DNA from: Hasllibacter sp.
GTDB taxonomy: Bacteria; Pseudomonadota; Alphaproteobacteria; Rhodobacterales; Rhodobacteraceae
Assembly (NCBI GenBank): GCA_028281405.1
Contig: JANQKA010000734.1
Span: 1 to 59,028, forward strand
Length of the DNA: 59,028 bases
Reading direction: 5' to 3'
Of the stretch, positions 7,851 to 45,290 are shown piece by piece (positions within the stretch are counted from its first letter, which is position 1; every line of letters starts with the position of its first letter). Below the pieces are notes generated by a model that worked only from the letters and a program-made list of their open reading frames with translations, was not told where the DNA came from and did no database searches. Position numbers and translations under genes: made by a program.

Positions 7851-7854
7851 GAAA

Positions 7855-18786: not shown

Positions 18787-20247
<1,461 letters not shown>

Positions 20248-22685: not shown

Positions 22686-24622
22686 GCGCGCGCCTTCCCT
22701 CCGAGCCCGCGCGGAGCGATCTCCCTGAGCTTCAGGGCGTCGAACCGCGCTTGGATTTCCGCACGCTGGCCTTCGGGGTAGGCCTCCAGGGGAGGAAGGG
22801 CGCCGTAAAGCGCGCGCAGCATGATGTCTCTCGCGATCGGCGCGGCCGTGACGGCGCCGCTTCCGCCGTGTTCGACCACCACCGAAACCGCGTATTTGGG
22901 CGCGTCCGCGGGGGCGTAGGATACGAAGAGCGCGTGGTCACGCTGCCTCCAAGGCAGTTCCTCGTTGCTGAGAACGCCCTCCAACCGCTCCTCGGGGGTG
23001 ATTGTCCTCACTTGGCTCGTTCCGGTCTTGCCCGCCATTTCCATGCCTTCCGCCACTATGCGCGAGCGCACGGCGGTTCCGCTCTCCGTGACGGATAGCA
23101 TTGCGGCGCGAACCGCGTCGAGCGATTCTTTCGAGATGTCCAGGGGCTTCGGCGCGGGGAGGTCCACGCCAACGCCGTTCACGGACTTCACCAGCGTCGG
23201 CGACACGTCCGTTCCGGTGGCGATTCTCGCGGTCATGATCGCCAGTTGCAATGGCGAGGCGAGGACGAATCCCTGACCGATGGACGCGTTCAGCGTGTCG
23301 CCCGTCAGCCAGGTTTCGCCGCGGCGCGTGAATTTCCACTCCTTCGTCGGGGTCAATCCCACCGCCACGGCCGACATCGGGAGGTCGGGACGGATGCCCA
23401 GCCCAAGTTTGACCGCCATCGCGGTAATGGCGTCGATACCAACACGCTCGGCCACGTCATAGTAGTAGACGTCGCAGGATTGCTGAAGGCTCTTCTTGAA
23501 CGCCATGTGTCCGTGGCCGCCCCGCCGCCAGCAATGGAACACACGATCGCCTTTCTCGACATGGCCCTCGCACAGAACCGTTTCCCTCGTGTCGATCAAG
23601 CCGGCCTCCAAAGCGGCGAGCGCCGTGACCATCTTGAAGGTTGAACCGGGCGGGTAGGCGCCTTGCACGCTCTTGTTGGTGAGCGGGCGGTGATCGTTGT
23701 CGGTCAGTTTGCGGTAATTGGCCACGGAGATGCCGCGCACGAACAGGTTGGGATCGAAGGATGGGGCGGAACCGACCGCCAACAGTTCACCGGAGCGGAC
23801 GTCCATGACCACCGCCGAAGCGCTTTCCCCTTCAAGCCTGGCCTGTGTGAAATTCTGAAGTCCGGCGTCCACCGTCAGCAGCAAATCGTCTCCCGCGTCG
23901 CCTTCGTTGAGTTCGAGCTCGCGCATCACCCTGCCGGCGGCGTTCACCTCGATCCGCCGGAACCCGGCGGACCCGCGCAATCTTTCCTCCACCTTGTTCT
24001 CGAGGCCGACCTTCCCGATCTGGAACTTCGGGATCCGCAGCAACGGGTCGGGATCCCTGATCTTGCTGAGATCGTAATCCGAGACGGGTCCGACATAGCC
24101 CACGACGTGGGCGAAGTCGTCCCTCAAGGGATAATGCCTGCTCAGACCCGTCTCGGGCGTGACCCCGGGCAACGCCGGGGCGTTCACCGCGACCTCGGCG
24201 ACATCCTCCCACGAGAGGTGGTCGGCGACCGTCACCGGGACGAACGGGGATCGGCGGTTCAGTTCCCTGCGCGCGCGGGCGAGGTCGTCCGCGGACAGGT
24301 CGATGAACTTTCCCAATTTCCGCAACACCTCCTCCACATCCCCGGCGTCCTCCTGGACGACGACGATGCGGTAGTTCTGTTCGTTTTGGGCGATCGGCAC
24401 TCCGTTTCGGTCGAATATGAGGCCGCGCGCGGGCGAGACCAGTCTCACGTTGACCCGGTTCTCCTCGGCCAGCAATTGGTATTGGTCGGATTCGTTGACC
24501 TGCAAATCCCGCATCCGGAGGCCGAGCACGGCGAGGACGCCGGCTTGGATGCCTCCCGCCACCACCGCGCGCCGCGTGATCTGGTGGACGCTTCTCCGCG
24601 TGTATTCTTCGCTGTACTTCAT
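22682..24622 (-). CDS. mrdA: penicillin-binding protein 2 (elongasome transpeptidase)
   Basis: 646 aa from ATG 24622. PPGSTFK (SxxK) and AGKTGTSQ (KTG) motifs plus an N-terminal TM segment. 4-nt overlaps with mreD and rodA. Confidence 0.93.
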   Translation of the reverse strand: MKYSEEYTRRSVHQITRRAVVAGGIQAGVLAVLGLRMRDLQVNESDQYQLLAEENRVNVRLVSPARGLIFDRNGVPIAQNEQNYRIVVVQEDAGDVEEVLRKLGKFIDLSADDLARARRELNRRSPFVPVTVADHLSWEDVAEVAVNAPALPGVTPETGLSRHYPLRDDFAHVVGYVGPVSDYDLSKIRDPDPLLRIPKFQIGKVGLENKVEERLRGSAGFRRIEVNAAGRVMRELELNEGDAGDDLLLTVDAGLQNFTQARLEGESASAVVMDVRSGELLAVGSAPSFDPNLFVRGISVANYRKLTDNDHRPLTNKSVQGAYPPGSTFKMVTALAALEAGLIDTRETVLCEGHVEKGDRVFHCWRRGGHGHMAFKKSLQQSCDVYYYDVAERVGIDAITAMAVKLGLGIRPDLPMSAVAVGLTPTKEWKFTRRGETWLTGDTLNASIGQGFVLASPLQLAIMTARIATGTDVSPTLVKSVNGVGVDLPAPKPLDISKESLDAVRAAMLSVTESGTAVRSRIVAEGMEMAGKTGTSQVRTITPEERLEGVLSNEELPWRQRDHALFVSYAPADAPKYAVSVVVEHGGSGAVTAAPIARDIMLRALYGALPPLEAYPEGQRAEIQARFDALKLREIAPRGLGGKARA

Positions 24623-25149
24623 CGGAAATCCCCCCCGTACGATGTTTCGGCGGCGGTGCGCCTGACGCCGAATACCGCCCAGATTATCGCCACGGCGATC
24701 GGGTAGGCCAAGGACGTGGCGGCCACGAAGCCGGTGAAGTCGCCGATGCCCGGCACGGGCAAACCCGCCGCCAACATCACGAGCCGCTCCAGCGCGGCCG
24801 CGCCCGCCACCGCCGCGGCCGCGAACATCCACTCGACCAGGAACGGCAGTCCCGCCGCGCGGCCGGCGCGTGAGCGCATGAATTCGCAAGCGACGATCAT
24901 GATCGCCGACCACAGGCCGGGGGGCCTCATGAACAGGAAGTCGGTGAACAACGTGACGGCGGCGATCAGTGGAATTGGGACATGATCGGGGCGGCGCGAC
25001 ACCCAAGCGAGGGTGAGGACGAACAAAATGTCGGGAGAGGCGAGGAATTGCGACCCGCCGAGAGGCAGAAGCCGCGCGAAGATCAACGCGAGGGCGGCCA
25101 GCACGTAGAGGCCGCGATAAAACCAGACCCGTTGGCTTCCCCTATCCAT
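24619..25149 (-). CDS. mreD: rod shape-determining protein MreD
   Basis: 176-aa polytopic membrane protein between mreC and mrdA, overlapping both. Confidence 0.8.
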   Translation of the reverse strand: MDRGSQRVWFYRGLYVLAALALIFARLLPLGGSQFLASPDILFVLTLAWVSRRPDHVPIPLIAAVTLFTDFLFMRPPGLWSAIMIVACEFMRSRAGRAAGLPFLVEWMFAAAAVAGAAALERLVMLAAGLPVPGIGDFTGFVAATSLAYPIAVAIIWAVFGVRRTAAETSYGGDFR

Positions 25150-26056
25150 CGTCCACCTCCGCCGTCCGCGGCTCGACCGCGGGCTCCGGCTCCGTACGGG
25201 GCGGAACGAGGAGAAAACTTCCTTCCTCGATCCTCTCTATCTCGTGGCTGCGGAGGACTCGAAGGAATTCCAGGCGCTCGTAGTCCGCCGACAGGAGGGC
25301 CCGCAAACGGCCGTCCGGTGTTTGCGCGACCTGGCCCACGAGAATACCCGAGGGGAACACGCCGCCGTCGCCCGAGGTCGCGACGCGGTCGCCCGGCCGC
25401 GCCAGTTCGGGTCTCTCAATGAAATCCAGCAGGGGGGCGCCCGACGAGTCCCCCGACAGGATCGCTTGTTGGCCGGAGGGCCGGATCGTGACCGGGACGC
25501 GGCTGTTGGGGTCGGTGAGCAGAATGACGCGGCTGGTGCTCCGGCCCACCCCCGCGATTCGCCCGACGAGGCCCAATCCGTCCGTCGCCGCCCACCCCTC
25601 GCGGATGCCGTCGCGCGCGCCCACGTTGAGCAGGACCGATTGTCTGAAGGGCGAGCCGCTGTCCGCCATGACCACGCCCGTGACGTAGGTCAATTGCGGG
25701 TCGAGTTGCACGTTGTTGATATCCAGGAGCTTGGCGTTCTGTTGCTCGAGCTGCAGGGCCGCCTCCTTCCACGCCTTCATCCTCTGCAACTCCCGCCTCA
25801 GTTCCCGGTTCTGTTCGTGGATCCGGGCGTAGGACTGAAAATCGTCAACCAAGCGCCAGGCGCCCGTCACGGGAACCATGATCCAATTCATCGAGGGCAT
25901 CACGGCGTCGAAAAGCCGGGCGCGCAGGTATTCGACCCGTGGATTGTCGATCAGCGACAGCAGGAAAAGTCCGGACAGCGCGACCACGATCATCGCCGCT
26001 CCGACGCGTCGGAGCGGTCGTATGAAACCATCCCTCACCATGTCGTCTCGGGGCAA
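25142..26056 (-). CDS. mreC: rod shape-determining protein MreC
   Basis: 304 aa. N-terminal TM, coiled-coil LRRELQRMKAWKEAALQLEQQNAKL, beta-rich C-terminal domains (GLVGRIAGVG, GVFPSGILVGQV). Confidence 0.88.
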   Translation of the reverse strand: MPRDDMVRDGFIRPLRRVGAAMIVVALSGLFLLSLIDNPRVEYLRARLFDAVMPSMNWIMVPVTGAWRLVDDFQSYARIHEQNRELRRELQRMKAWKEAALQLEQQNAKLLDINNVQLDPQLTYVTGVVMADSGSPFRQSVLLNVGARDGIREGWAATDGLGLVGRIAGVGRSTSRVILLTDPNSRVPVTIRPSGQQAILSGDSSGAPLLDFIERPELARPGDRVATSGDGGVFPSGILVGQVAQTPDGRLRALLSADYERLEFLRVLRSHEIERIEEGSFLLVPPRTEPEPAVEPRTAEVDDG

Positions 26057-26099
26057 CCGGGATTCTCCTGATTCGCGGGGTGGAAGCCTTCCGGCCGAT

Positions 26100-27164
<1,065 letters not shown>

Positions 27165-27980: not shown

Positions 27981-28533
27981 GTGGATCAGATTCTTGTCCC
28001 GCGTCGGCAAACCATGTGCGCCCGCCGTCGTCCCCCATTGGTTCACTCTCCGCCGTAGCGCGCGGACCCGCCGCGACTTCGAATCATGGCATAGGGCGGA
28101 GATTCCGCGTGGGCTGCTTGAAGTCAACGTTTTCCCGGGATTGGCGGGTCCAGTTCCGCATGGGGCGGACTTGTTCGCCGCACCCGCCCCACGCCGCGGC
28201 CCTTTTCAACCGAATCGTGGTATGAATCGCGGCTTCGGGCCCCGAAAGCGGCGCATCGGACGCGTTCCGTCCGTATACGGGCGGCGAACGTCGGTTGGGC
28301 GAAGGAGCGTCGCGACCCGGGTTTCGGAAATTGAGGCGGCCAACCGGAGAGACGCGGTGGATTCTCCCAGCCCGCGTGTGGCGGCGGGGAGTTGCGCCGG
28401 CTTGAGGCCGTCCGCCCCTGTTTTCGCCCCGCCCTCGCGGGGCGGCGGGTTTGGCGGCGCTGGCTGAGCGGTTGGACGCTCCATTCGCCCCGCCCGCGCG
28501 TGGCGGCGGCGGAATTCGGTGCGGTTGAACGTT

Positions 28534-28555
28534 CCCTCCGGGATCCCTCCGGGAT
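28534..28555. repeat. exact 11-bp tandem duplication (x2)
   Basis: ccctccgggat occurs twice back-to-back, about 160 nt upstream of lepA. Confidence 0.9.
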
Positions 28556-28716
28556 TCGATGCGCCTTGCGGGGCACCGCAACTGACCCGCGGTGTCGGTG
28601 ACCGGATTCCACCCGCGGTGCCTAGGGGGAGTCCGTCCCGGCGTCCCTCGTGGTGACGTCCCCTCCGGGGCGCGGAAGGTCTCGACAAATCCGTGGATTT
28701 GTCGCATATCGCGCCC

Positions 28717-30516
28717 ATGGTCGAACTCTCCCGCATACGCAATTTCTCCATCGTCGCTCACATTGATCACGGCAAGTCGACCCTGGCCGACCGCTTGATC
28801 CAGCGCACCAACGCGGTGTCGGAACGGGAGATGAAGGAGCAGCTTCTCGACGCGATGGATATCGAACGGGAGCGCGGCATCACCATCAAGGCCAACACGG
28901 TCCGCCTTGAATACACCGCCGCGGATGGATTGGACTACGTTCTGAACCTGATCGACACACCCGGGCATGTGGACTTCGCCTACGAGGTTTCCCGCTCCAT
29001 GCGCGCGGTGGAGGGATCGCTTCTGGTCGTTGATTCCACCCAGGGGGTCGAGGCCCAGACGCTCGCCAACGTCTATCAGGCGATCGAGGCGGATCATGAG
29101 ATCGTGCCCGTTCTGAACAAGATCGATCTGCCCGCCTCCGACATCGATCGCGTGGCGGAGCAGATCGAGGAGGTCATCGGAATCGACGCTTCCGGCGCCA
29201 TCCCCGTCTCCGCCAAGACGGGGGATGGCATCGCCGAGACACTGGAGGCGATCGTCACGCGGCTTCCCGCGCCGGTCGGCGATCGCGGGGCTCCGCTCAA
29301 GGCGATGCTCGTCGACTCTTGGTACGACGCCTATCTGGGGGTCGTCGTCCTCGTGCGCGTCATCGATGGAGCACTGAGGAAGGGTGACCGGATCAGGATG
29401 ATGTCGAACGGATCCACCCACCACGTCGACCGGCTGGGCGTGTTCCGCCCCGTCATGCGGGATCATTCCGAACTTGGCCCCGGAGAAATCGGCTTCCTCA
29501 CCGCCTCCATCAAACAGGTGCGCGACACCCGCGTGGGCGACACCATCACGCATGAGAAGGGAGGAGCGGAAACCCCGTTGCCGGGCTTCAATCCCTCCCG
29601 CCCGGTGGTGTTCTGCGGCATCTTCCCCGTCGATAACGGCGAATTCGAGAATCTGCGCGAGGCGATCGGGAAGCTCGCGCTCAACGACGCTTCGTTCACC
29701 TTCGAGATGGAGACTTCCGCCGCCTTGGGGTTCGGCTTCCGCTGCGGTTTCCTCGGGCTGCTTCATCTGGAGGTGGTCCGCGACAGGATCGAGCGGGAGT
29801 ACGGCATCGAACTGATCACCACAGCACCCAGCGTGATCTACAATGTGCACATGCGCGGTGGCGGGATCCTGGAACTCCACAACCCCGCGGACATGCCCGA
29901 TCCGACCAACATCGACCATATCGAGGAGCCGCGCATACGGGCGACCATCATGGTGCCCGACGAATACCTCGGAGATGTCCTCAAGCTTTGCCAGGACAGG
30001 CGCGGGATCCAGGAGGACCTGACATACGCCGGTTCCCGCGCCATGGTCGTCTACGACCTGCCGCTGAACGAGGTCGTGTTCGACTTCTACGACCGGCTGA
30101 AATCGGTGACCAAGGGCTACGCCAGCTTCGACTATCAGATGATCGGTCACCGGGAGGACCACCTCGTCAAGATGCAGATCCTCGTGAACGAGGAACCCGT
30201 CGACGCGCTCTCGACCATGGTGCACCGTGACCGGGCCGAGACGCGCGGGCGCGCCATGGTCGAGAAGCTCAAGGACTTGATTCCCCGCCACATGTTCAAG
30301 ATCCCGATTCAGGCGGCGGTCGGCGGTCGGATCGTCGCCAGGGAGACCCTCGCCGCGCTGAGAAAGGACGTGACGGCCAAATGCTACGGAGGCGACGCGA
30401 CGCGGAAGCGCAAGTTGCTGGACAAGCAGAAGGCGGGGAAAAAGAAGATGCGCCAGTTCGGAAAGGTGGACATTCCGCAGGCGGCGTTCATCGACGCCCT
30501 CAAGATGGACGGCTGA
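28717..30516 (+). CDS. lepA: translation elongation factor 4 (LepA)
   Basis: [39 protein letters not shown]. 599 aa from ATG 28717; an in-frame GTG at 28693 is an alternative start. Confidence 0.95.
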
Positions 30517-30775
30517 AGGGAGCGCCCGTAGCTCGTGATGGGGTCTCGGCCCGTTTCGCTTTTCCACCTTGTCGACGCGGGCCACACAAGCCGTCGCCTT
30601 CTCTTCGCTCCGATCATCTCGGATTCCCCCGGATTGATTGGACCGATTCCGTTGGCGAAGGACTTCCTGACCTCAAGCGGCCCCGCCGGGAGCGCGTCAC
30701 TGTCCGGAAAATCCATCGAAGCCGGAGCCGGGCCGGTCCCGACCGCGCGGCGAGTCCTCCGGAGGGAGATGCCCG

Positions 30776-31813
30776 TCACGCCGCTCGGGAGGAAATGTGA
30801 CGCAGAAGATGCCGGACATCTTCGGGTTCCGCGGGTTTCCTGTGGGCGAGGGCGTTCCGTATCCGCGTCATCGCCGCTAGGCGGTTCGCGTCCTTTTCGC
30901 TCAATTTGTCCGAAATTTGACGATTTAGCGCGCCGAATTCCAACTCGTCGACCGATGAGACGCCCAACCCCCTCGTAAAGTTGTTGACATAAAGAAGGTC
31001 TCGAAACCGTTGAACGAAACGTTGCCGTTCCACTTCGAGAAGTGGAAACAACGAGGTCAATTGGGCCCGCCAAATTCTCGCGCGCAACTCATCCGTGGCT
31101 CCATGCCTCATGAGCGCGAGTGGGCAGGAATCCACTTTTCCGACCTCCCCGGCCGGCGTCATGTCGGGATCCCGCGCGCGGCGGTCCAGCCAAGCCAACG
31201 GGTCAGAAAGGTCGTCCACACCCGCCCGCGCGAGATCCCTGGCCAGATCCAATCTCCTTCGGCAAACTTCCGTCGCGAGAGAGACAGCGAGATCCTCCCC
31301 GGCGCCTCCGCGATTTCCGAATAGATGTTCCTGGGCCCAAATGATGCGGTCTCCCCGGGTGAGGGAGTTTCTCCACGAGGGAAAGGTTTCGACTTCGGAA
31401 ACTTTGATATCCCGGGGCAGGTCGGGCACCAAAATATGAAGACCGGACTCCCGGGGCATCCGCTGTTCCGCGAAGCGGGACAGGAAGGTTTCCCATCCCC
31501 GCCATGAATGAGCCGGAAGCGACGAGAACCGCACCAAAACGCATGTGCCGGTAAATATTTCGGCCATAAGCCCCTCGAGTTTGGGTTCCGCCGAAATCCT
31601 GCGGGCGATGATTCTGGTTGGCTTCCCGTCCAAACGGTCGAGGTCGTGGGGGGAGAGCCGGTCGGTCCCGCCGAAAATGGCGTCCTCCATGCGGCCTGGA
31701 GTCGCGGCGTCGGCGGAGACGAGGGCGATACCCTTGTCCATAAGCGCGGACGCGACCCGGTCCACCCAAGCCGAGAGGCCGGGAAGCGACCAGGCGCTAT
31801 GCTCACCCTTCAT
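30776..31813 (-). CDS. 345-aa protein with C-terminal HEPN-like (Rx4H) motif; candidate RNase effector of the two-gene island
   Basis: Protein-like ORF in the lower-G+C island. Its ATG at 31813 overlaps the last 11 nt of the giant upstream ORF. The C-terminal helix is ...LSEKDANRLAAMTRIRNALAHRKPAEPEDV. The N-terminal ~250 aa are unrecognised. Confidence 0.75.
   Translation of the reverse strand: MKGEHSAWSLPGLSAWVDRVASALMDKGIALVSADAATPGRMEDAIFGGTDRLSPHDLDRLDGKPTRIIARRISAEPKLEGLMAEIFTGTCVLVRFSSLPAHSWRGWETFLSRFAEQRMPRESGLHILVPDLPRDIKVSEVETFPSWRNSLTRGDRIIWAQEHLFGNRGGAGEDLAVSLATEVCRRRLDLARDLARAGVDDLSDPLAWLDRRARDPDMTPAGEVGKVDSCPLALMRHGATDELRARIWRAQLTSLFPLLEVERQRFVQRFRDLLYVNNFTRGLGVSSVDELEFGALNRQISDKLSEKDANRLAAMTRIRNALAHRKPAEPEDVRHLLRHISSRAA
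30842..30859 (-). other. R-N-A-L-A-H: candidate HEPN catalytic Rx4H motif
   Basis: Codons read directly on the minus strand: cgg aac gcc ctc gcc cac. Confidence 0.55.
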
Positions 31814-34800
31814 GAATCAACAAATGCCCGAACGGCGTCACCGAGGGCAGATTGTCCGCGGAACCGTGATTCCGGATGAGATTCAATTCCTCGAGTTTGG
31901 AAATCCGGTCGGAGGAGGTTCCAAACTGCACCATCATGTCCTCCCTCGATGAGATCGCTTCCCTCATTTGGGAGAATTCCCGGAGAAACTCGAGATCCCC
32001 GACGTCGACTCCGATCTCTTCCGCCGTCACGGGATTGCTCCGAAGCCATTCGCGGAGACGTTTTTCGATTTGCGCCTCCGAGCGGGTCTCCACCTCCCTG
32101 AGGACCGGGAGAAGCATTCCAAGCCGGGCCGGGGCGCAACCGGAAGCGGTCATCACCGCCCTCCGGATTTTTTCATTGTCGAAAATCGGGGCCAGATTCT
32201 CAGATGCCAACCAATGCCTCAGCATCGCCTCTGACCAAGGCTTCGCGCGATATATTTTGATTCCGTCTGGTAGAATATCCGGCGTTCGTTCGAGACACCA
32301 TACGGGAATGATCCGGCCATCATCGACGGGTTTCATCTTCGACAGGTCTTCGGCGTCTTTGGCGTTCCATTCTCCCTCCACCACGAGAACCGCCTTTTTG
32401 TCGCCGATGGCGTCGATTTCCCGGCGAAGAGAATTCCTATCCGAGGTGGTCAAGGTATTGGACGAATTCCTTATAATGTCCGCCGCGACCTGAATGCGCC
32501 TCCCCAGACCGGAACCGATGATGACCGGGTGGCCAATGACCAATCTTGTACCCGGTTTCGAGGCGTCGAACAGAAGTTTGATATCTCTGTCCGTAAGGGG
32601 AGCCCTTTCGTCCTTCAGGACCGGTCTCAGCAATGAATGAAATTCGCGGGGATTGTACGTCGGTTCCGACTCCCTCTCTCCAAGCAGGAGAAGAGAGGAT
32701 TCGAGTTGTTCCCGCGTGCCGAGCATTTGCGCCACGAGAGCGCTGCGCAATCCGTACCGGTTTTCACCGAATTCGCTCAATACCCCCAAATCGACCATTT
32801 CCTTCAGGAGCTCCTCGATATCCAGCACGCCGGGGTGGTCGAGGGAGTGAGGCCAGAAGGGCCGCGCCAGATCAAGAAGTCGTTCCGGAGACTCGCCCTT
32901 GGAGAATACTTTTTCATCCCCGCTCGAGGCGTCCAGCCGGTGCAGGGCGAGGGATTTGGCGATGCATTCGTACCGGAGGTCAAGGTTCAACGTCAACTGA
33001 AATCTATCGCGGATCTGCTCGGCGGCCTTGCTCGCCGCTTCACCATCGAACATCGCTTTGTGCGACAAGGCCCATCGTGGCCCGTCGGGATCGGCCAATA
33101 CGCGCCTTCCTATCGACTCAACGATTTGGCGGCAGAAAATCTGCACCAGCGAGGGATAATAATTCATCCGGGTGAGCAAGTCCAGCGCCAGCGTAGGATC
33201 GGCGTAGTCAAGTCCAGCCGCGCGCATGGGATCTGTGGCGAGCCGCCGAAGTGCGGATCGGTTTTCCTTGGTCTGGTTCATCGGTCCGATGCAGATTGGT
33301 TCGCCGAGATGGGGAAGGGGAGAATTCGGTGCTTGGGCCATCCGCCGAACGTTGTGAAGGCCCGCGAACACCGCCTTGAACCTCATCCTGGTGCGTCCCA
33401 TGAGATCCTTCAGCAGCTGCAGATTGGGATACCCGTGTTCATGCTCGTTTTTCAGGAAATTGTCGGATTCGTCGAACATCGTCAGCAACCTTCGGGAAGG
33501 ATCCACCCCGAGCCAGTCCTCGATCTCCCGGACGATGCCGTTGGGATCCTCGATTCTCGGTGGAATTTCGATATGTTCCCGGATATGGTGGAGCAAATCG
33601 CTCCATATCCGCTCCGAGGGAGTTCCGGCGCCTCCGACTGGCCGGATGTCGATGTAAATAGCGAGTTCTCCAATCAATGGCCGGTGACGATCGGATCGGA
33701 TTTTGTTCAGCAGAGCGGATTTGCCCAATTGCCGTCCTCCGTAGATCAGGCATCCTCCGCCGTCGGTCGCCGCGATCCGCGCCACTTCGTCCTGACGGCC
33801 GAAGAACATTTCCGGCGGGATTTCACCAGCCCGAGTGACGTACGGCTGCACCCACCCGAACGGCAATGCGCACGCGAAAAGCGCGGGCAGGGGATCCCCC
33901 CCACGTGTGGCGAGATGTAGAAGAAGCGATTCGTCCACCACAAGCACTTTTCTCGCGTCTGAATGAGCTTTTTGCGCCAAGGCCCTGCGTTCCCTGACGC
34001 TCAATCTGCGAAGAATCATGACGATCCAAGGTTGGTCCGGCGCCTCGTTTGCGATTTCGCGTAGGATTCCCTGTGGCGGCAGGTCTCCCCGGACCACGGC
34101 ACAGCGGTAATGTCCATCCGCTTCGCTTCCGAACGCTGGTGGAATGAACCAACCGTCGGGCTGAATCCAGTTGCATTTTATCGAGAACCCCCGCACTTTT
34201 CCTGGCACGAGCACGATATCGCCCGAAATGTTGACTTTAGTGAATCCGAGACCGCCGAGAACATCTCCGAACGCCCGACGGATCGGGTCGGGTCGGTTTT
34301 GCTTCATCGCGTTCTCCAGTCCCCTCCAATCGGAGAGAACTTGACGGGAGCGACCGCGCTCCGTTTTCTCGAGCCCGGAGAAATCGAGCGGCCCCGTCGC
34401 CCCACCCTCCTTCGCCGCCTGCACTATACGTCCATGGGTCAGGCCCTCCCCATTCGATTCCTCGATGCGCGTCACGAAATCAGGGAAAAAATCCGCGAAC
34501 TCGTCGTGGGCGTCTCGTTCGGGCAACGAAACATCGCGCCCGGCCGATAATTCGGCGACGGCGTCTTCCACGGTAACCGGATCGAGCCTGTGCATTTCGT
34601 CGAGTATTCTTTTCGCGGATTCGCCGAGCGGCCCGCCTTTTTGGGTTAGAATTTCAAGCTGCCGCTTTTGCCTCCCCGTGATTTCATCGGTCAATTCGCT
34701 CCGCCTCTTCTCGAATTCCGACAGAACATCGTCGAGTTCGGGAAAATCCGGCGGGATGCCGGGCACTCTCGCCTCCGATGCGGCCGGAAGTGTGACGTCG

Positions 34801-37724
34801 CCGTTTCCGTCGGTCGCGGACAGCGCGACGGAAATCGCCGAAATCTGGGTCAAAATATCGTGGACTTCATCGCGGCTTTCAAAATTGAGGTAGGAAATTG
34901 TCGCGAAGGATTGCCGCAATCCCGCGACCTGATCGCGCGCTTTCTCCCGGGCCGAGTCGAGTGCCTCATCCAGCATTTGCTGATACTCTTCCATCTTTGA
35001 CTCATTCGCGGTGCCATCTCGCTTCAATATTTCCAGAATTTCCCGCGAAGCGAGGATGGCATGTTCCTTTATTCGTTGACCAAACGCCTCGGAATAGTTC
35101 GCCGCGATGCATTCTTTGTTGGACAGCGATCGAAGCATCCGATTGTCCCGACGTGTCCGTTCCTCATCGAATGACTCGTCGGCACTCCCCGTCCAATCCT
35201 GGCATCCTCCGGGAAGGCGCAACAACGGTGTTTCGGACATGTCCTTGACCCTACGGAGAGAATACAACGCACCTTTTCCATCGAGCAAACCACGAATATC
35301 TTCAAGGCTATCGCGCAGCACCGCATTGGCCGCGGAGGCGAGCGTGCTGGTGGACGGCGCGCTCCCGGTGACCGGTTCGCCTGTGCTCACGCTCTCCGCC
35401 CCGTCCGCCGCCGCGTCCAATTCCCTGCGAATCTCGCCGACCGCCCGCAGCAGCGATTTATGATCTTTCGTGGTGGCGGCCCGCTCCTTATGGGCATTCC
35501 GCCAATCCCGGAGCAGGTCGCACGCCTCTTGCAGATTGCGGCAGAACCAACCAAGCGCCATTCCGTCAATGCGACTGTTCTTCGGACGTCCGCCTCTCAG
35601 CGCCGCCTCCTCGACGAACAGTTCCTGCGCGCCCCGGTCGTCGTCCCATTTTCCGATGAACTCTTCGACGATTCCCGCCGCCTCGGGGGTATCGGACATG
35701 GCCGCATTGAACGCCCTGCCGATTACTCCCGATGGCTCCAATTCCTCGTGAAAAATTTTGTAAGTTGGTTGGTGCGCCGTTTTTCGGAGGCGCGCGCGCT
35801 CTATCCAATTTTTCATCGCTTCGCGGACTTCCGTCAGACGTTCGTCGGTTTTCGCCCCGGCGAGGTCCGCCAGAATTTTCTCTGAAAATTCGATCTCGTA
35901 GCCCAGGTCCGAAAGTGTTTCCACCAACCGGGCGGTGTTTTCCGTAGCCGCTTCGCGCGGCAATTTTCGTAATTCGTTCCGCGCTCCGTAGGATGGCGCG
36001 AAGAGCGCGGGACGCAGCAACGCGGCGAGCGCGAGTCGACCGGCCGCGGCCCGATCACCCGCCTTTGAAAGGGAATCCATCATTTCCGCCATCACGGTGC
36101 TTCGCTGCCGCTCGCCCATATCGGCCATAGTACGCACGCCGCGAAGCATGAGCAGACCCCAAAGAACCGCCGCGGGTATCTCGGGCGTTTCTCCCCGGTC
36201 TTCCCGAAGCCGGGCGAGGTGCCAAGCGAATACAATTTCGCCTTCCCGGAGGAAGCGGGAGAGCGCCTTGGACAGGATTTTCGCGCGCGCTCCAGGTTTG
36301 ACGCCCGAATCTTGATCGTTGAGCCCGGTCTTTGGGGTGGCGACTTTTGCGCCGGATTTAATTTCCGTTTGCCCGCGCGTTGGCCGCGCACCTTGGCTTG
36401 GCACCCGAGTTTTCGATGTCGGAACCGAATCCTCTTGCTGTTTCTTGTCGGACGGATCCCGTTTCGTCCCGCGTTGGTTGGCATCGAAGCTTTCTTTTCC
36501 GGAGGAAATTCCGAGCGCTGGCCGCTCCTTGGAATCGGGTGGAGGAGCAACCGCAACTGTTTTGTCATTCGGTGACGGTGGCTCTTCAATTGCGTCCCCC
36601 GCCCCCGTGCGTCCTTGTTTCCGAATTCCGCGCTTGGGCTGGGACGGAGCCTCGTCCGTGGCTCTCACGGCTGGGGAATCCCGCTCTGGAGCGGCTTCGC
36701 TTGTTGGTTCAACTTCGATTTTTTCTTTGTCCGTTTCCGTTTTGATTTCTTCCGGCTTCGAGCGGTGCGCGCTCGCGTCGACGGGAAGCGACCGCTCGAG
36801 TTCTTCCCGGGCGGCCTGGGCACGGACCGAGAGGCTTTCGCGGCGCCCGAAGGCCTCTTTCTGCAATGGCACCAACCGCAGTTGAGTTTCGAAGTCGCCG
36901 CTGTCGACCGCCATTCTCGCCTCGTCCTTCAGCGACTCGACCTCGGAATCCGCCTTATCGGCCGCGGCTCTGGCGGACTCGAGCTCGGACAGTAGGGCAT
37001 CGATATCTTCCAGATGCCCGGTGCCGGGTTCATCGGGAAGGAGGCTTAGCAGACCCGCGTCGATTTCCGAAATGCGTTTCGCGATGTCAGATCTGCGCTT
37101 GGCGAGATTTGCGCGCTCTCGTTGTTCGGCTTTTCCGCACTCGTCGACGAGCCGTTTCGCCAGATCGAGAATTTCTTGCGCCGATTCCGCTTTCGGCGTG
37201 ATTAGGGATCGCGCCTTTTCGGCGATTGAGTGTGAAATGGAGGCCCAATCCTCCAGTCCAGCGCGTTCGTCGTCGACGGCATGGTTGGATACCGTCGTGG
37301 TGTCCTTGGATTCCGATTCATCGTTGAGCATCGTAAGGAAATCCAGTAGAAACGCTTCGAACGAAAAGGGAGAAACCTGTCCAGAGTAATAATCCAGCCG
37401 CTCGAAGAATTTAATCCGGTTTTCGAATGGATCTTCCCCGATATACGAGGCGATATGGTCCAACGCCCGATGGTGGAACGTATTTTTTTGTTTTCTCTCG
37501 GGTATCCGTCGATCGAATTCACGCAGTTCCTCGATTCCGTCTCCGGACATCATTATGGATAGCGCGGAATAGAATTGGCCATCGTCCCGCAGGTTGTCGC
37601 GGTCGATGAACCTTTCAAAGAGATCGGCGTTTTCCCGTCGGTGGCTGGGAACGATGCGAAAGCCCTTCTTGATCTCGCGGACGTAGGCGGCCGCCTTTGG
37701 TGCCGTGATGGTCTCCTGATTCAT
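31803..37724 (-). CDS. giant (~1,973 aa) multidomain protein: coiled coil, low-complexity linker, helical region, REase-like module, ORC/STAND-like P-loop NTPase, wHTH-like and C-terminal domains
   Basis: Stop-free for 1,973 codons in DNA of only about 52-58% G+C by hand count of two 60-nt lines, which cannot be a G+C artefact. FFGRQDEVARI..GGCLIYGGRQLGKSALL (Walker A), RRLLTMFDESDNFL (Walker B), NYYPSLVQIFC (sensor-like). ATG 37724 (MNQETITAPK) is preceded by GAGGAA; ATG 37802 is an alternative start. The reading frame stays open upstream into eamA. Confidence 0.8.
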   Translation of the reverse strand: MNQETITAPKAAAYVREIKKGFRIVPSHRRENADLFERFIDRDNLRDDGQFYSALSIMMSGDGIEELREFDRRIPERKQKNTFHHRALDHIASYIGEDPFENRIKFFERLDYYSGQVSPFSFEAFLLDFLTMLNDESESKDTTTVSNHAVDDERAGLEDWASISHSIAEKARSLITPKAESAQEILDLAKRLVDECGKAEQRERANLAKRRSDIAKRISEIDAGLLSLLPDEPGTGHLEDIDALLSELESARAAADKADSEVESLKDEARMAVDSGDFETQLRLVPLQKEAFGRRESLSVRAQAAREELERSLPVDASAHRSKPEEIKTETDKEKIEVEPTSEAAPERDSPAVRATDEAPSQPKRGIRKQGRTGAGDAIEEPPSPNDKTVAVAPPPDSKERPALGISSGKESFDANQRGTKRDPSDKKQQEDSVPTSKTRVPSQGARPTRGQTEIKSGAKVATPKTGLNDQDSGVKPGARAKILSKALSRFLREGEIVFAWHLARLREDRGETPEIPAAVLWGLLMLRGVRTMADMGERQRSTVMAEMMDSLSKAGDRAAAGRLALAALLRPALFAPSYGARNELRKLPREAATENTARLVETLSDLGYEIEFSEKILADLAGAKTDERLTEVREAMKNWIERARLRKTAHQPTYKIFHEELEPSGVIGRAFNAAMSDTPEAAGIVEEFIGKWDDDRGAQELFVEEAALRGGRPKNSRIDGMALGWFCRNLQEACDLLRDWRNAHKERAATTKDHKSLLRAVGEIRRELDAAADGAESVSTGEPVTGSAPSTSTLASAANAVLRDSLEDIRGLLDGKGALYSLRRVKDMSETPLLRLPGGCQDWTGSADESFDEERTRRDNRMLRSLSNKECIAANYSEAFGQRIKEHAILASREILEILKRDGTANESKMEEYQQMLDEALDSAREKARDQVAGLRQSFATISYLNFESRDEVHDILTQISAISVALSATDGNGDVTLPAASEARVPGIPPDFPELDDVLSEFEKRRSELTDEITGRQKRQLEILTQKGGPLGESAKRILDEMHRLDPVTVEDAVAELSAGRDVSLPERDAHDEFADFFPDFVTRIEESNGEGLTHGRIVQAAKEGGATGPLDFSGLEKTERGRSRQVLSDWRGLENAMKQNRPDPIRRAFGDVLGGLGFTKVNISGDIVLVPGKVRGFSIKCNWIQPDGWFIPPAFGSEADGHYRCAVVRGDLPPQGILREIANEAPDQPWIVMILRRLSVRERRALAQKAHSDARKVLVVDESLLLHLATRGGDPLPALFACALPFGWVQPYVTRAGEIPPEMFFGRQDEVARIAATDGGGCLIYGGRQLGKSALLNKIRSDRHRPLIGELAIYIDIRPVGGAGTPSERIWSDLLHHIREHIEIPPRIEDPNGIVREIEDWLGVDPSRRLLTMFDESDNFLKNEHEHGYPNLQLLKDLMGRTRMRFKAVFAGLHNVRRMAQAPNSPLPHLGEPICIGPMNQTKENRSALRRLATDPMRAAGLDYADPTLALDLLTRMNYYPSLVQIFCRQIVESIGRRVLADPDGPRWALSHKAMFDGEAASKAAEQIRDRFQLTLNLDLRYECIAKSLALHRLDASSGDEKVFSKGESPERLLDLARPFWPHSLDHPGVLDIEELLKEMVDLGVLSEFGENRYGLRSALVAQMLGTREQLESSLLLLGERESEPTYNPREFHSLLRPVLKDERAPLTDRDIKLLFDASKPGTRLVIGHPVIIGSGLGRRIQVAADIIRNSSNTLTTSDRNSLRREIDAIGDKKAVLVVEGEWNAKDAEDLSKMKPVDDGRIIPVWCLERTPDILPDGIKIYRAKPWSEAMLRHWLASENLAPIFDNEKIRRAVMTASGCAPARLGMLLPVLREVETRSEAQIEKRLREWLRSNPVTAEEIGVDVGDLEFLREFSQMREAISSREDMMVQFGTSSDRISKLEELNLIRNHGSADNLPSVTPFGHLLIHEG
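33462..33488 (-). other. Walker B LLTMFDESD of the giant protein
   Basis: A hydrophobic strand followed by D-E, about 80 aa after the P-loop. Confidence 0.7.
33717..33740 (-). other. Walker A P-loop GGRQLGKS of the giant protein
   Basis: Minus-strand codons gga gga cgg caa ttg ggc aaa tcc, approximately aa 1329-1336. Confidence 0.8.
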
Positions 37725-37973
37725 TTCCTCGGTCCTCTTCGTCGTCGTGGCGAGGCCGCGCCTAGTTGCCCGGACAGCCCCTCCGGTGGTGGTGGTCGGC
37801 ATATGCGAGGCTGAGGACGAGCGCAAGCGCCCGAAAAAATTCCCACCTCCGCGGCGCGCGCCGCTGTCGCCCCTTACGACAGGGGCGGTGGGGCGGGCAA
37901 GGAAAAATTTGTCGGCCTCCGAACTCGTCGGCGGGTCTGGGCAAGGTTTGCTAGGGACCGGTCCTCCCGTGGT

Positions 37974-38840
37974 GGATTCTCGGTCGCGGTCCAGTGAGAC
38001 GATGGCGAGTCCGGCGAACACCAGAGCGGCTCCGAGGAGCGTGGCCGGCGTCACGGTCTCGCCCACGACCGCCACTGCGAGGATCCATGCGGTCAGCGGT
38101 TCCGCGAGCGCCAGCGTCACGCCCGTCGCCACGGTCACCCGGCCGAGGCCCCAAGTGTAGAGGGCGTAGGAAACTCCCGTCGCCCCGACGCCCAGAAAGG
38201 CGAGCGCGAGCAGCGCGCCCGGGTCGAAGACCCATCCAAGCGGAACGATCGCCAGCACGGGCAGGGCGAGGATGGCCGCTGCGGAGAATGTTCCCGAGGC
38301 GATGGCGACGGGTTCCGCTCGCCCGACCATGCGTCCCGTTAGGATGGAGTAGGTGGCGTAGGAGGCGCCGGCCAGCGCCGCGAGGGCGATTCCGAGAACG
38401 CCACCCTCCGCCTTCGCGCCGGACAGGGCGAGAAGCGCGGCTCCCGATATGGCCGCGAACTGGGCGGCGGCGCGGGTCGGAGTCGGAGGGCGTCCCCTCG
38501 CGAAGTCGAAAAGACCAACCCAAACGGGCGCGCTGCCGATGGCGATGGCTGTGCCGATGCCCACGCCCGCCAGCGTGACGGCGCTGAAGAAGAGCAGGTT
38601 GTAAGCGGCGATCGCGATCCCGGCGCAAATCATCGGCCGCCACGGCAGGCCGCGGAAGGATGTGCGCCGCAGGCGCGCCAAGGCGAGGAGGGAGAGAGCG
38701 CCGACGCCGAGACGGACCGCGGCGACGACCAAGGGCTCCCGCGCTTCGGGCAGCAGGGCTTGGGTGGTTCCGGTGGACCCCCACAGCGTCGCCGCGGCGA
38801 TCACGGCGAGAACGCCGGCGAATCGTTTCTCCGATGCCAT
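37974..38840 (-). CDS. EamA/DMT-family 10-TM transporter domain (3' boundary undefined: no in-frame stop before 31803)
   Basis: MASEKRFAGVLAVIAAATLWGSTGTTQ... has two EamA-like halves with about 10 hydrophobic helices ending ..VFAGLAIVSLDRDRES. High G+C like the backbone. The same frame continues without a stop into the giant ORF. Confidence 0.75.
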
Positions 38841-38930
38841 GCGGAGGCTTTCGCAGAGAGCGTTGTCCCGCGCAAGTTCCACCTGAGCGAATCGCCCGGG
38901 ATGCTCGCATCGCCGCCGGGTGTGGCTTAG

Positions 38931-40358
38931 ATGGGCTTCATGCCGACCAAAACTCCGGTGATCTGGTGGGTCCGGCGCGACATGCGCTTGGCCGACAATC
39001 CCTGCCTCGCCGCCCTTGTCGAGACGGGACGGCCGGTGATTCCCGTGTTTCTGCTCGACGAAGTTCTGGAAAGCCACGGAGCGGCGCCCAAATGGCGCAT
39101 GGGGTTGGCGGCGGAGTGTTTCGCGGAGCGGCTTGCCGGGAAGGGATCGCGGTTGATCTTCCGGAGGGGCGGGGCGTCCCGCGAACTGGGCCGCCTCGCG
39201 GAGGAAACGGGAGCGGGGGCCGTTTGGTGGACGCGGGCGTACGACGCCGAAGCGCGGTCGAGGGACCGGGCGGTTTACGAGGGACTCAAGGATCGGGTGG
39301 ACGTCCGCGCGGTGGACGGGCACCTCTTGATGGAGCCATGGTCGGTGAGGACCGGGTCGGGTGGTCCCTACAAGGTCTACACGCCTTTCTGGCGCGCCGT
39401 GAAGGACCGCGGTCCGGGGGGCGGGTGGCCGCGCGTGTCGAAAATCCCCGCGCCGGGCCGATGGCCGGAGAGCGAAAATATTGCCGACTGGAACCTCGGA
39501 AGGGAGATGCGCCGCGGGGCGGCCGTGGTGCGGGAGCATGTCCGGGTGGGCGAGGCCGAGGCGCTGAAGCGGCTCCGCGTGTTCGCGCGCGACCGGTTGT
39601 CGCACTACGGGGACGCGCGCGACGATTTGGCGCGGCCCGGCACCTCGGAACTGAGCGAACACCTGACCTATGGAGAAATAGGGCCGCGCACATGCTGGGA
39701 CGTCGGCGAGCGTGGGATGCGGGAGGGCGCCCCGGGGGCGGAGGCCTTTCTGAAGGAGCTTGTCTGGCGCGAGTTCGCCCATCATCTGATGTGGCATTTT
39801 CCGGACATGGCGGAGGCGAACTGGCGATCCGAATGGGACGCCTTTCCTTGGAAAACCGACGAGCGGTCGAGGGAGGTCCGGCGTTGGAAGGAGGGTCGCA
39901 CGGGGGTCGAGATCGTCGATGCGGCGCAGCGCGAGATGTATGTCACGGGGACGATGCACAATCGCGCGCGGATGATCACCGCCTCCTACCTGACGAAGCA
40001 CTGCCTCGTGGATTGGCGGGTGGGACGCGCGTGGTTCGAGGATTGCCTGATCGACTGGGATCCCGCGTCGAACGCCTTGGGCTGGCAATGGGTCGCGGGA
40101 TCCGGACCGGACGCCGCGCCCTACTTCCGCGTGTTCAATCCCGAATCCCAGGCGGAGAAATTCGACGTGGATCGTCGTTACCGCGACCGATGGCTCGCCG
40201 AGGGACGGAGGCGTCCATCCCGTGACGCGCTCAGCTATTTCGACGCGATTCCGGAAAGATGGTCCATGGCCCCGGGCGACGTCTACCCCGACCCGGTGGT
40301 TGGAGTGAAGGAGGGGAGGGAGGCCGCTCTCCGGGCGTACCGGGATTTCAAGTCGTAA
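38931..40358 (+). CDS. phrB: deoxyribodipyrimidine photo-lyase
   Basis: 475 aa. VIWWVRRDMRLADNPCL, TSELSEHLTYGEIGPR, WREFAHHL, GWQWVAGSGPDAAPYFRVFNP. Confidence 0.92.
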   Translation: MGFMPTKTPVIWWVRRDMRLADNPCLAALVETGRPVIPVFLLDEVLESHGAAPKWRMGLAAECFAERLAGKGSRLIFRRGGASRELGRLAEETGAGAVWWTRAYDAEARSRDRAVYEGLKDRVDVRAVDGHLLMEPWSVRTGSGGPYKVYTPFWRAVKDRGPGGGWPRVSKIPAPGRWPESENIADWNLGREMRRGAAVVREHVRVGEAEALKRLRVFARDRLSHYGDARDDLARPGTSELSEHLTYGEIGPRTCWDVGERGMREGAPGAEAFLKELVWREFAHHLMWHFPDMAEANWRSEWDAFPWKTDERSREVRRWKEGRTGVEIVDAAQREMYVTGTMHNRARMITASYLTKHCLVDWRVGRAWFEDCLIDWDPASNALGWQWVAGSGPDAAPYFRVFNPESQAEKFDVDRRYRDRWLAEGRRRPSRDALSYFDAIPERWSMAPGDVYPDPVVGVKEGREAALRAYRDFKS

Positions 40359-45215: not shown

Positions 45216-45290
45216 GAGTGATTCGCGGGAGGTCCGCCGGTGAGGATGTTCCGGCGCCCCGCGCGACAGCGAGTAACGATGGAGTACGAG

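Follow-up and report, generated by a model that had tools for sequence, protein, structure and literature searches.

The stretch of DNA analysed here, 59,028 nucleotides of contig JANQKA010000734.1 from Hasllibacter sp. (assembly GCA_028281405.1; hereafter the window), carries an intact two-gene module, probably acquired horizontally, in which the gene for a large ATPase overlaps the start of a gene for a 345-aa partner whose C-terminal domain is probably of the HEPN type. The explanation that we favour, with somewhat better than even confidence, is that the ATPase and its HEPN-type partner form an uncharacterised two-gene defence module in which the partner would serve as an RNase effector under the control of the ATPase.

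The small gene occupies positions 30776 to 31813 on the minus strand, where the 345-aa, ATG-started frame expected from the original prediction was found, followed by a stop codon. The 11-nt overlap with the upstream stop codon was likewise read as predicted: ATGAAGGGTGA at 31803 to 31813 (minus strand) spans the large-gene stop and the small-gene start. There is no obvious Shine–Dalgarno sequence upstream of the small-gene start, so translation of the small gene is presumably coupled to that of the large gene. Co-translation had also been proposed originally, and the tight spacing is kept in relatives, where the two genes overlap by 1 to 14 nt or are separated by a gap of 3 to 5 nt. In all loci whose upstream sequence can be seen, the large ATPase gene lies immediately 5′ of the small one. 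An 833-aa open reading frame downstream of the pair (28084 to 30585, minus strand) was rejected as a gene, being an antisense shadow of lepA (28693 to 30516, plus strand).

The upstream gene itself proved to be shorter than the ‘giant gene’ of 2931 aa that had been described. The true large gene spans 31803 to 37724 on the minus strand and encodes 1973 aa plus a stop codon, with its start, mapped by homologues, at 37724 (MNQETITAPK). This start is supported by homologues of 1889 to 1978 aa that align from residues 8 to 17 onward, and homology extends over the full length of proteins of 1976 and 1978 aa. The mechanical open reading frame from 31803 to 40598 was rejected as a single gene because it joins three things in one frame, namely about 586 codons antisense to a photolyase gene (38931 to 40358, plus strand), an EamA transporter starting at 38840, and the true large gene.

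The large protein is a P-loop ATPase of the STAND/ORC type in which both Walker motifs, A and B, are intact. Walker A (GGRQLGKS, residues 1329 to 1336; 33717 to 33740, minus strand) lies in a YGGRxLGKSALL block that is conserved and largely invariant in 11 diverse large homologues and is preceded by FFGRxxE. The DE pair of Walker B (LLTMFDESD, residues 1413 to 1421; 33462 to 33488, minus strand) is invariant in the same 11 homologues. The assignment is based on these motifs and on relatives that pass profile cut-offs (AAA_22 with 33.8 bits and, at locus L025, nSTAND1 with 29.7 bits); the protein of the window itself matches AAA_16 with an E value of 0.0083. A search of PDB sequences with the ATPase half of the protein gave no meaningful match. 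Conservation across the 11 diverse proteins defines a core of residues 1066 to 1850 (32175 to 34529, minus strand), and this core shares 27% identity with residues 2167 to 2976 of a 3113-aa pPIWI-RE fusion protein (E = 7e-74). About 1300 aa precede the ATPase domain. The variable N-terminal region comprises about 1060 aa, to which domain searches assigned no function, and this front end is swapped between lineages, pPIWI-RE fusions being among the variants.

The module is located between the EamA gene and lepA and has a GC content of 57 to 62%, versus 65 to 70% in its flanks. No flanking direct or inverted repeats and no tRNA were found as signs of an island boundary at the module, and no promoter or terminator signals around it rose above background. 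No helicase partner, integrase or other defence gene adjoins the pair in the window. When DruE and DruH of locus L003 were used as tblastn queries against the 59 kb, neither was found, the sole match being an 81-aa generic helicase match at 19123 to 19356. Scans of the small protein, the large protein and the 833-aa downstream translation against Pfam, NCBIfam and PADLOC gave nothing above cut-off; in PADLOC-DB v2.0.0 neither the large nor the small protein had a match at E ≤ 0.1, and none of the models of validated defence systems in the three collections matches either protein. Because the window holds no defence neighbours of the pair, the role proposed for it here rests on its relatives.

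The family of the small protein is large and uncharacterised, comprising about 1600 clusters at 50% identity. An exhaustive profile search returned 1600 representatives with E ≤ 1e-3, of which 815 had E ≤ 1e-10, and two sets of homologues were used for conservation analysis, one of 24 close members and one of 60 diverse members at 20 to 52% identity. The stretch TRIRNALAHRKP, on which the original prediction of a HEPN ribonuclease was founded, is present; within it RNALAH, the proposed catalytic Rx4H motif, corresponds to residues 319 to 324 (30842 to 30859, minus strand, reading CGGAACGCCCTCGCCCAC). By itself this motif is weak evidence for HEPN, as the protein is rich in arginine and its Rx4-6H count is no more than expected by chance (6 observed versus 3.2 expected in shuffled sequences, P = 0.08); RNxxxH occurs once (shuffle P = 0.02). 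Conservation of the motif is the part that exceeds chance and, at the level of sequence, is real evidence. R319 and H324 are the only invariant columns among the 60 diverse homologues, so that the check on R/H conservation proposed with the original prediction came out in its favour, and both residues are also invariant in all 24 close homologues. Within the motif, R is found in 60/60 diverse members, N in 50/60, L in 51/60, A in 56/60 and H in 60/60; besides N320, L322 and A323, P327 is also highly conserved. In an earlier helix (residues 240 to 269), E260 is nearly invariant (at least 90% conserved) and is a candidate for the conserved acidic residue that HEPN domains have in an N-terminal core helix near the motif; P257 beside it is conserved in at least 90% of the 60 diverse members.

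The C-terminal domain (residues 231 to 345; 30779 to 31123, minus strand) is all-helical in an AlphaFold model of residues 226 to 345 (pLDDT 92.7) and is probably of the HEPN type, with metal-independent RNase activity as its predicted function. All recurrent weak database matches of the family are to HEPN families. HEPN_Swt1 is the commonest, matching 13 of the 24 close members (best E 6.6e-5) and 12 of the 60 diverse ones (best E 2.9e-5), in each case below the curated threshold; other weak HEPN matches among members are to DUF4145, pEK499_p136, RiboL-PSP-HEPN and CARF_HEPN/Csx1. The family consensus searched against Pfam matched HEPN_Swt1 (E = 1.1e-4), DUF4145 (1.5e-3) and pEK499_p136 (0.025), all below cut-off, and the small protein of the window matched HEPN_Swt1 and DUF4145 with E values of 0.083 and 0.011. 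No match reached a curated HEPN cut-off, the best consensus score being 22.9 bits where 27.5 are needed. PADLOC searches with the 60 family members gave only scattered matches at E ≥ 0.0045, and 6 of the 11 weak rows were CARF_HEPN or Csx1 models. Neither the small protein nor whole-family profiles gave a meaningful match when searched against PDB sequences. In a profile search against the PDB, Cas13a ranked first, at a non-significant E value of 0.29, with sub-alignments on two RNxxxH stretches of Cas13a, its catalytic HEPN motifs. Thus, of the HEPN RNase reading in the original prediction, the conserved R and H, the recurrence of HEPN families alone among the weak matches and the position of the motif stand, whereas no curated threshold is reached.

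In both AlphaFold models, DSSP places R319 and N320 in the helix of residues 306 to 323 and H324 as the first loop residue, ahead of a final helix of residues 330 to 344. The HEPN motif is defined as lying at the end of the second-to-last helix (PMC3710099), and the position of RNALAH in the model agrees with this definition. Foldseek searches of the PDB with the isolated C-terminal model returned no match below E = 1. The four best single-protein matches were chains of HepS, with E values of 3.5 to 5.5 and probabilities of 0.14 to 0.21; the structural comparison proposed originally therefore yielded no significant match, although the top one was a HEPN protein.

The N-terminal part of the small protein, residues 1 to about 215 (31169 to 31813, minus strand), is modelled as an alpha/beta domain with a helical lid and an AAA+-like fold (pLDDT 91.6). 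Its conserved motif consists of WxLPGP, a beta strand and PxxxPxG. The likeness to AAA+ proteins is weak: Foldseek gave only weak matches to clamp-loader, ORC and p97 proteins, with best E values of 7.8e-3 (PDB) and 2.8e-3 (BFVD) and a TM-score of about 0.3, and the family consensus had no Pfam match in this domain. None of the 60 members has a Walker A motif (GxxxxGK[ST]) in this domain, PxxxPxG standing in its place. The domain is best described as a pseudo-ATPase. The original suggestion of a docking domain for this part looks sound, given an AAA+-like fold that lacks Walker A, and the small protein would then dock on the large ATPase. The idea that the domain is a paralogue of the ATPase domain of the large protein was not supported, as a profile-profile comparison showed no similarity between the two (hhalign probability 0.2%).

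The relatives of the pair are recurrently found beside genes of Druantia type III, a system recognised by DruH and by DruE, a YprA-family helicase with an MZB domain. DruE-like helicase genes adjoin the pair in about 17 distinct loci, together with DruH where it is visible, and three arrangements occur: DruH-DruE-large-small, large-small-DruH-DruE, and convergent. A co-directional four-gene cluster of the first kind was found on an IMG/VR contig; IMGVR_UViG_3300048575_000222 carries a four-gene locus of this kind. The link recurs across lineages of the small protein that are only 20 to 25% identical to one another. Other relatives lie beside SF1 helicases, AddAB-like genes, an integrase or IS elements (IS66 and IS21), or are fused to pPIWI-RE, and some are on large plasmids. 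The pair has no helicase or nuclease neighbour in the window, at loci L001/L006 or at locus L035, and therefore must be able to function alone. Literature searches for HEPN genes linked to DruE or DruH, together with papers on YprA, Druantia III-A, component modularity and pPIWI-RE, yielded no account of the pair. ARMADA II, which is found together with Druantia III in E. coli, was weighed as a possible identity for the pair and rejected, since it is made up of a Snf2 helicase, a methyltransferase, a YprA helicase and UvrD. The recurrent DruH-DruE linkage is the strongest contextual feature of the family and was missed in the original prediction.

Among known systems, the Swt1/Abi2 clade of HEPN domains, which includes bacterial Ava_2192-type proteins with HEPN fused to an AAA+ ATPase, shows that HEPN and AAA+-type modules can occur together in defence contexts (Anantharaman et al., 2013, PMC3710099). 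HEPN_Swt1 is the best-scoring HEPN family for the C-terminal domain, and R-N-x-x-x-H lies at the end of the second-to-last helix in both. However, the matches stay below the Pfam cut-off, the order of the domains is reversed here (AAA+-like N-terminal, HEPN C-terminal), the AAA+-like domain lacks Walker A, and the active ATPase is encoded separately, as a protein of about 2000 aa. HepS, an abortive-infection HEPN protein of the Gifsy-1 prophage (PDB 9oij), is the top structural neighbour, with a TM-score of 0.38 to 0.44 over 80 to 86 columns and 19 to 20% identity, values that are not significant; unlike the small protein, it is a stand-alone protein of about 190 to 220 aa without an ATPase partner.

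The anticodon nucleases PrrC and RloC consist of an N-terminal NTPase domain and a C-terminal HEPN-type tRNA nuclease, and PrrC is kept latent by a linked type I restriction system. The small protein resembles them in having a P-loop-type N-terminal domain followed by a C-terminal Rx4H domain, and in the linkage of its gene to a DNA-targeting defence system. This likeness suggests, by analogy, that the pair could have an RNA-targeting back-up role. It differs from PrrC/RloC in that no sequence similarity was detected, the P-loop is degenerate and the partner is a giant STAND-type ATPase; the linked system is Druantia III, which is absent from the window, rather than type I restriction-modification. 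No PrrC or RloC model in Pfam, NCBIfam or PADLOC matched, and the small protein, having no Walker A, lacks the active ABC-type NTPase of these nucleases.

The large protein shares FFGRxxE, Walker A and Walker B of the AAA_16/AAA_22/STAND type with the STAND-NTPase defence proteins (Avs/AVAST and nSTAND), and both would follow the scheme of a nuclease governed by a large sensor ATPase. In contrast to Avs/AVAST, the putative effector is not fused to the ATPase as an N-terminal domain but is a polypeptide of its own, some 1300 aa stand before the ATPase domain, and none of the Avs models in PADLOC matches the large protein. As for Druantia type III, some 17 distinct relatives of the pair have its DruE-like genes as direct neighbours, but the large and small proteins are not homologues of DruH or DruE, and the window has neither of the latter. 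Papers of 2025 and 2026 describe Druantia types III-A and III-B as DruH and DruE only, one of them without mention of HEPN, and one 2026 preprint gives the killing step of Druantia III as unknown. CoCoNuT systems with HEPN effectors (CnuE) are predicted RNA-targeting modules that often occur in Druantia type III superoperons, for which an ‘echeloned’ order of DNA restriction first and RNA degradation last was proposed (Bell et al., 2024, PMC11090510). They differ from the pair in their McrBC-type GTPases, coiled-coil proteins and UPF1-like helicases, none of which is present here. The small-protein family, with its roughly 1600 clusters, has no matching Pfam, NCBIfam or PADLOC model and was not found in the literature searched, and the pair is probably an undescribed defence module.

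In the favoured mechanism, the small protein would dock on the large ATPase via its pseudo-ATPase domain and be held inactive. The variable part of the large protein would sense a phage-derived cue, or the cue might be passed on by an adjacent helicase system, Druantia III for example. An ATP-dependent rearrangement or oligomerisation would then bring two HEPN domains together into a composite RNase site, and cleavage of cellular or phage RNA (tRNA, rRNA or mRNA) would arrest translation and abort the infection. A more specific idea, which we consider unlikely at present, is that the giant ATPase and its pseudo-ATPase/HEPN partner are a dedicated RNA-targeting second defence line of Druantia type III, with the orphan pair of the window as a stand-alone derivative. 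Where the four genes occur together as DruH-DruE-large-small, the large ATPase would keep watch over DruHE, over DNA intermediates made by DruHE or over phage inhibitors of DruHE, and the HEPN RNase would be unleashed only when clearance at the DNA level fails.

Other explanations of the pair concern either the activity of the small protein or the role of the module as a whole. The small protein might be a non-catalytic adaptor or sensor whose HEPN-like domain binds RNA or a nucleotide signal, or holds the complex together, while killing is done elsewhere, either by the variable N-terminal part of the large protein or by the nuclease domains of an adjacent helicase, DruE for example. HEPN domains that are inactive or that bind ligands are well known (tabulated in PMC3710099). 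Most relatives of the pair do adjoin helicase or nuclease genes (DruE, AddAB-like genes, SF1 helicases, pPIWI-RE), and the N-terminal 1060 aa or so of the large protein have no assigned function. However, inactive HEPN domains usually lack the R or the H, whereas both are invariant in 60/60 members here, with Asn in 50/60, and the pairs in the window and at loci L001/L006 and L035 have no such neighbour, so that we regard a purely non-catalytic small protein as a doubtful alternative. It is very unlikely that the C-terminal domain is not HEPN at all and that R319 and H324 act in trans in the ATPase cycle, for example as an arginine finger or a sensor, with the small protein as an inactive AAA+ subunit by which a ring of the large ATPase is completed or regulated, in the manner of clamp-loader delta and delta-prime. 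Foldseek with the whole protein does match clamp-loader, RFC and ORC subunits along most of its length, and no HEPN match is significant; against this, the RNxLAHxxP block fits the HEPN motif in both sequence pattern and helix-end position, no AAA+ lid or collar family matches the C-terminal domain whereas HEPN families are its sole recurrent weak matches, and the small protein has no sequence similarity to the ATPase domain of the large one.

A different objection is that the pair is not anti-phage but an addiction or maintenance module of mobile elements, or part of host RNA metabolism, its proximity to Druantia III reflecting shared variable islands. The occurrence of relatives on plasmids or flanked by IS66, IS21 or an integrase is in line with this, as is the fact that no defence model matches. 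Chance sharing of islands nevertheless fits poorly with a Druantia III link that spans lineages of 20 to 25% identity and three gene arrangements, and the alternative partners, SF1 helicases and pPIWI-RE, are typical defence components too; we consider a role outside defence quite improbable.

Defence in which an NTPase sensor works with a HEPN RNase is a known theme. What sets the pair apart is that the putative effector is a separate subunit with a docking domain resembling a dead AAA+ module, that its partner is an ATPase of about 2000 aa with a lineage-swapped front end, pPIWI-RE fusions included, and that the pair recurrently adjoins Druantia III. If the reading of the four-gene form is true, it would add an undescribed type to Druantia and provide a physical example of ‘echeloned’ immunity. 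If the favoured explanation is confirmed, the pair would be an added, widespread defence module and a tractable case of DNA-level and RNA-level immunity encoded together.

The small gene (30776-31813, minus strand) starts with ATG and encodes 345 aa; its translation ends in AAMTRIRNALAHRKPAEPEDVRHLLRHISSRAA and carries RNALAH at residues 319-324 (30842-30859, minus strand). The ATG lies inside the end of the large ATPase gene directly upstream (31803-37724, minus strand), the two genes sharing 11 nt at 31803-31813 (ATGAAGGGTGA). Both this overlap and the motif, on which the original prediction of a HEPN-type RNase effector had been built, were found in the ORF list and its translation, but the size of the giant gene had to be revised. 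The mechanical ORF at 31803-40598 (2931 aa) is an over-read, its first ~586 codons being antisense to a DNA photolyase gene (38931-40358, plus strand) and the following part passing through an EamA transporter gene, whose start is at 38840 (Pfam match to EamA, E 4e-25). The large gene starts at MNQETITAPK (37724), preceded by a GAGGA-type ribosome-binding site. Alignments with homologues of 1976 and 1978 aa (50% and 31% identity) begin at residues 8-17 and reach the end, and therefore the large protein has 1973 aa. The 833-aa ORF downstream (28084-30585, minus strand) was rejected as a gene, as it lacks homology and is an antisense shadow of lepA (28693-30516, plus strand; GTP_EFTU and LepA_C, E 1e-48 to 1e-53). 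Thus, the module consists of two genes. Spurious long ORFs are frequent in the window (~65% GC).

The module has a GC content of 57-62%, compared to 65-70% in its flanks, and is positioned between the EamA gene and the convergent lepA; the window copy is most likely an orphan pair within a low-GC insertion. The housekeeping flanks hold a cell-shape cluster of mreB, mreC, a PBP2 transpeptidase gene and rodA (21537-27137, minus strand) and the photolyase gene. The EamA ORF shows no in-frame stop ahead of the large gene (37725-38840, minus strand), so that its translation would pass ~80 seemingly intergenic codons and enter the 1973-aa gene, and the public gene call there (P0025) is a 2345-aa EamA-ATPase fusion. 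The stop may have been lost at island insertion, or its absence may be an assembly error. The window has a single tRNA gene, tRNA-Ser (GGA) (43909-43998, plus strand), and encodes a 2219-aa protein (45240-51899, plus strand) that matches the RTX calcium-binding nonapeptide repeat 13 times (HemolysinCabind, E 7e-67); at 50-52 kb GC drops to 0.50-0.56, suggesting that a second segment was acquired there.

The small protein is rich in Arg (12%); it has six Rx4-6H matches where 3.2 are expected (P = 0.08), and one RNxxxH (P = 0.02). Taken alone, the motif is not beyond chance; it is conservation that carries the signal. R319, N320 and H324 are invariant in 24/24 close homologues. An exhaustive profile search brought up 1600 representatives with E<=1e-3, of which 815 reach E<=1e-10; almost all of them are 330-390 aa in length and match from end to end. 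When 60 members sharing 20-52% identity with the window protein are aligned, R319 and H324 are the sole invariant columns, and the local pattern reads R (60/60), N (50/60), x, L (51/60), A (56/60), H (60/60), x, x, P (46/60).

Pfam matches at residues 299-340 of the window protein were sub-threshold (DUF4145, E 0.011; HEPN_Swt1, E 0.083). HEPN_Swt1 was by far the commonest match of the family: of 24 close homologues 13 match it, with a best E of 6.6e-5, and of 60 diverse ones 12 do so, with a best E of 2.9e-5. DUF4145, pEK499_p136 and RiboL-PSP-HEPN came next, and PADLOC gave 11 weak rows, six of them CARF_HEPN or Csx1 models. A consensus sequence derived from the C-terminal domain HMM matched HEPN_Swt1 at E 1.1e-4 (22.9 bits, below the cut-off of 27.5), DUF4145 at 1.5e-3 and pEK499_p136 at 0.025. 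Against PDB sequences, a C-terminal profile ranked Cas13a top without significance (E 0.29); the sub-alignments landed on two RNxxxH stretches, the catalytic HEPN motifs of Cas13a. The AlphaFold models, which are confident (pLDDT 91.6 for the full-length protein, 92.7 for residues 226-345), are all-helical over residues 231-344, with a final helix at 330-344; R319 and N320 lie within helix 306-323 and H324 is the first residue of a loop, a modelled placement that fits the published HEPN description (Anantharaman et al., 2013; PMC3710099). In HEPN domains an acidic residue of a preceding helix is also conserved, and inserts between helices 2 and 3 are common (Anantharaman et al., 2013); E260, which is nearly invariant, and additional short helices at 278-303 are in keeping with this. 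Speaking against the assignment, Foldseek gave no significant match for the isolated domain; its first hits were four chains of HepS, a prophage HEPN abortive-infection protein (E 3.5-5.5, TM 0.38-0.44). The C-terminal domain is probably a HEPN domain, and the core of the original prediction fared better in these tests than its initial evidence warranted.

With the whole model as query, every Foldseek match was to an AAA+ protein (subunits of clamp loaders/RFC, ORC, p97 and the proteasomal Rpt subunits). These matches are weak: the best E value is 7.8e-3 in PDB and 2.8e-3 in BFVD, with probabilities reaching 0.99 and TM near 0.3. The N-terminal part has a conserved order of WxLPGP, a beta strand and PxxxPxG at the expected Walker A site, and GxxxxGK[ST] was present in this part of 0/60 members. 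Kinship with the large protein's ATPase domain was considered and dropped, as profile comparison detected no similarity. The N-terminal two-thirds appear to be a pseudo-ATPase domain, plausibly the interface through which the small protein docks to the large one. In four longer members an additional AAA_33 kinase-like domain is attached at the C-terminus.

In the large protein, Pfam detected AAA_16 alone (E 0.0083), and relatives score above the AAA_22 and nSTAND1 thresholds. Among 11 aligned homologues from diverse lineages, largely invariant blocks stand out: FFGRxxE, Walker A YGGRxLGKSALL (residues 1328-1340), Walker B LLxxDExDxF (1413-1421) and RFKxVFAGLHNVxR, so that the ATPase, judged by its motifs, looks active. 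The conserved core spans residues 1066-1850, and the first ~1060 aa differ between lineages and carry no assigned domain. The core is also fused behind a complete pPIWI-RE module in a 3113-aa soil-metagenome protein (27% identity, E 7e-74). Such fusions (pPIWI_RE_X, MID and RNaseH; proteins of 2403-3113 aa) were seen at the relatives' loci L027 (663-11629) and L029 (6766-15647), and the partner small proteins in these lineages additionally have an AAA_33 kinase-like domain, whose GPSGAGKS loop is intact. The context differs from the published three-gene pPIWI-RE operon (REase, DinG, pPIWI-RE).

The large gene lies directly 5′ of the small gene in every locus with visible upstream sequence, the two overlapping by 1-14 nt or lying 3-5 nt apart. 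Unexpectedly, a helicase resembling DruE of Druantia type III (Pfam DEAD, YjiV_N, Helicase_C, MZB) adjoins the pair in about 17 distinct loci (L002/13, L003/4, L005, L008, L009, L011, L012, L015, L020, L021, L030, L031/52, L032, L033, L036, L039/40, L054/55), and the second component, DruH, is present wherever the sequence extends far enough. The order is DruH-DruE-large-small, co-directional, on an IMG/VR contig and in Rubellimicrobium thermophilum (pair degraded); large-small-DruH-DruE on Methylocystis parvus plasmid pMpar-1, where DruH is named 'STY4851/ECs_5259 family protein'; or large-small convergent with DruE-DruH, as in L054, whose small protein is only about 20% identical to that of the window. 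Druantia III is the most informative context, and it is invisible from the window sequence alone. Distant relatives of the large protein, besides those fused to pPIWI-RE, lie behind SF1 helicases, beside an integrase, or behind an SF2 helicase and a 741-aa protein; small proteins of SF1-linked loci retain the motif (LRNRLAH, ARNDLAH). The pair stands alone in the window, L001/L006 (IS66 and IS21 flanks), L017 (degraded) and L035. Hosts are mostly Alphaproteobacteria, with single cases in an Acidobacteriota bin, a Planctomycetota bin and a bin labelled Exiguobacterium.

The co-directional IMG/VR locus (L052, 446-16891; UViG_3300048575_000222) is on a contig classed as viral, and its DruE frame is interrupted by a stop near 7731-7933, reflecting either a pseudogene or a sequencing error. 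On pMpar-1 (L030, 13713-14765), the small gene is annotated as 197 aa, yet tblastn similarity spans residues 8-327, so it is probably frameshifted or mis-called; the large gene is preceded there by an AddB-like PD-(D/E)XK nuclease and a UvrD helicase, and DruH-DruE lie downstream. The small gene persists only as fragments in Halovulum marinum, R. thermophilum and Methylobrevis albus (L017, L021, L022), as does the large gene in the first two, and therefore the module decays in some genomes.

PADLOC-DB v2, Pfam (2025) and NCBIfam (2026) hold no model for either protein, and RefSeq names them 'AAA family ATPase' or 'hypothetical protein'. Papers of 2025-2026 describe Druantia III-A and III-B as DruH and DruE only and call the clearance step unresolved; the word HEPN is absent from the YprA-family survey. 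ARMADA II is a known co-localising partner in E. coli, but its components differ from the pair. The nearest concept is CoCoNuT, predicted RNA-targeting HEPN systems that form superoperons with Druantia III and are proposed as a later echelon (Bell et al., 2024; PMC11090510).

Three other explanations were weighed. The small protein could be a non-catalytic HEPN-like adaptor; set beside an Arg and a His invariant in all 60 members, this is unlikely. That the pair is an addiction or other non-defence module is rather less likely again beside the recurrent Druantia linkage. Least probable is that the Arg and His serve the ATPase cycle in a clamp-loader-like subunit: the AAA+ structural matches point that way, and the two residues lie in the helical domain with the HEPN matches.

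The analysis shows the gene structure, the retained Arg and His, ATPase motifs that are intact, the obligate pairing of the two genes and their repeated linkage to Druantia. On balance, we lean towards a two-gene defence module, in which a large STAND-type ATPase would control an effector that has its own gene and joins a pseudo-ATPase domain to a HEPN domain with putative RNase activity. Activation may proceed by ATP-driven assembly and lead to abortive infection. The module would act in many genomes beside Druantia III or other helicase systems, and as an orphan here.
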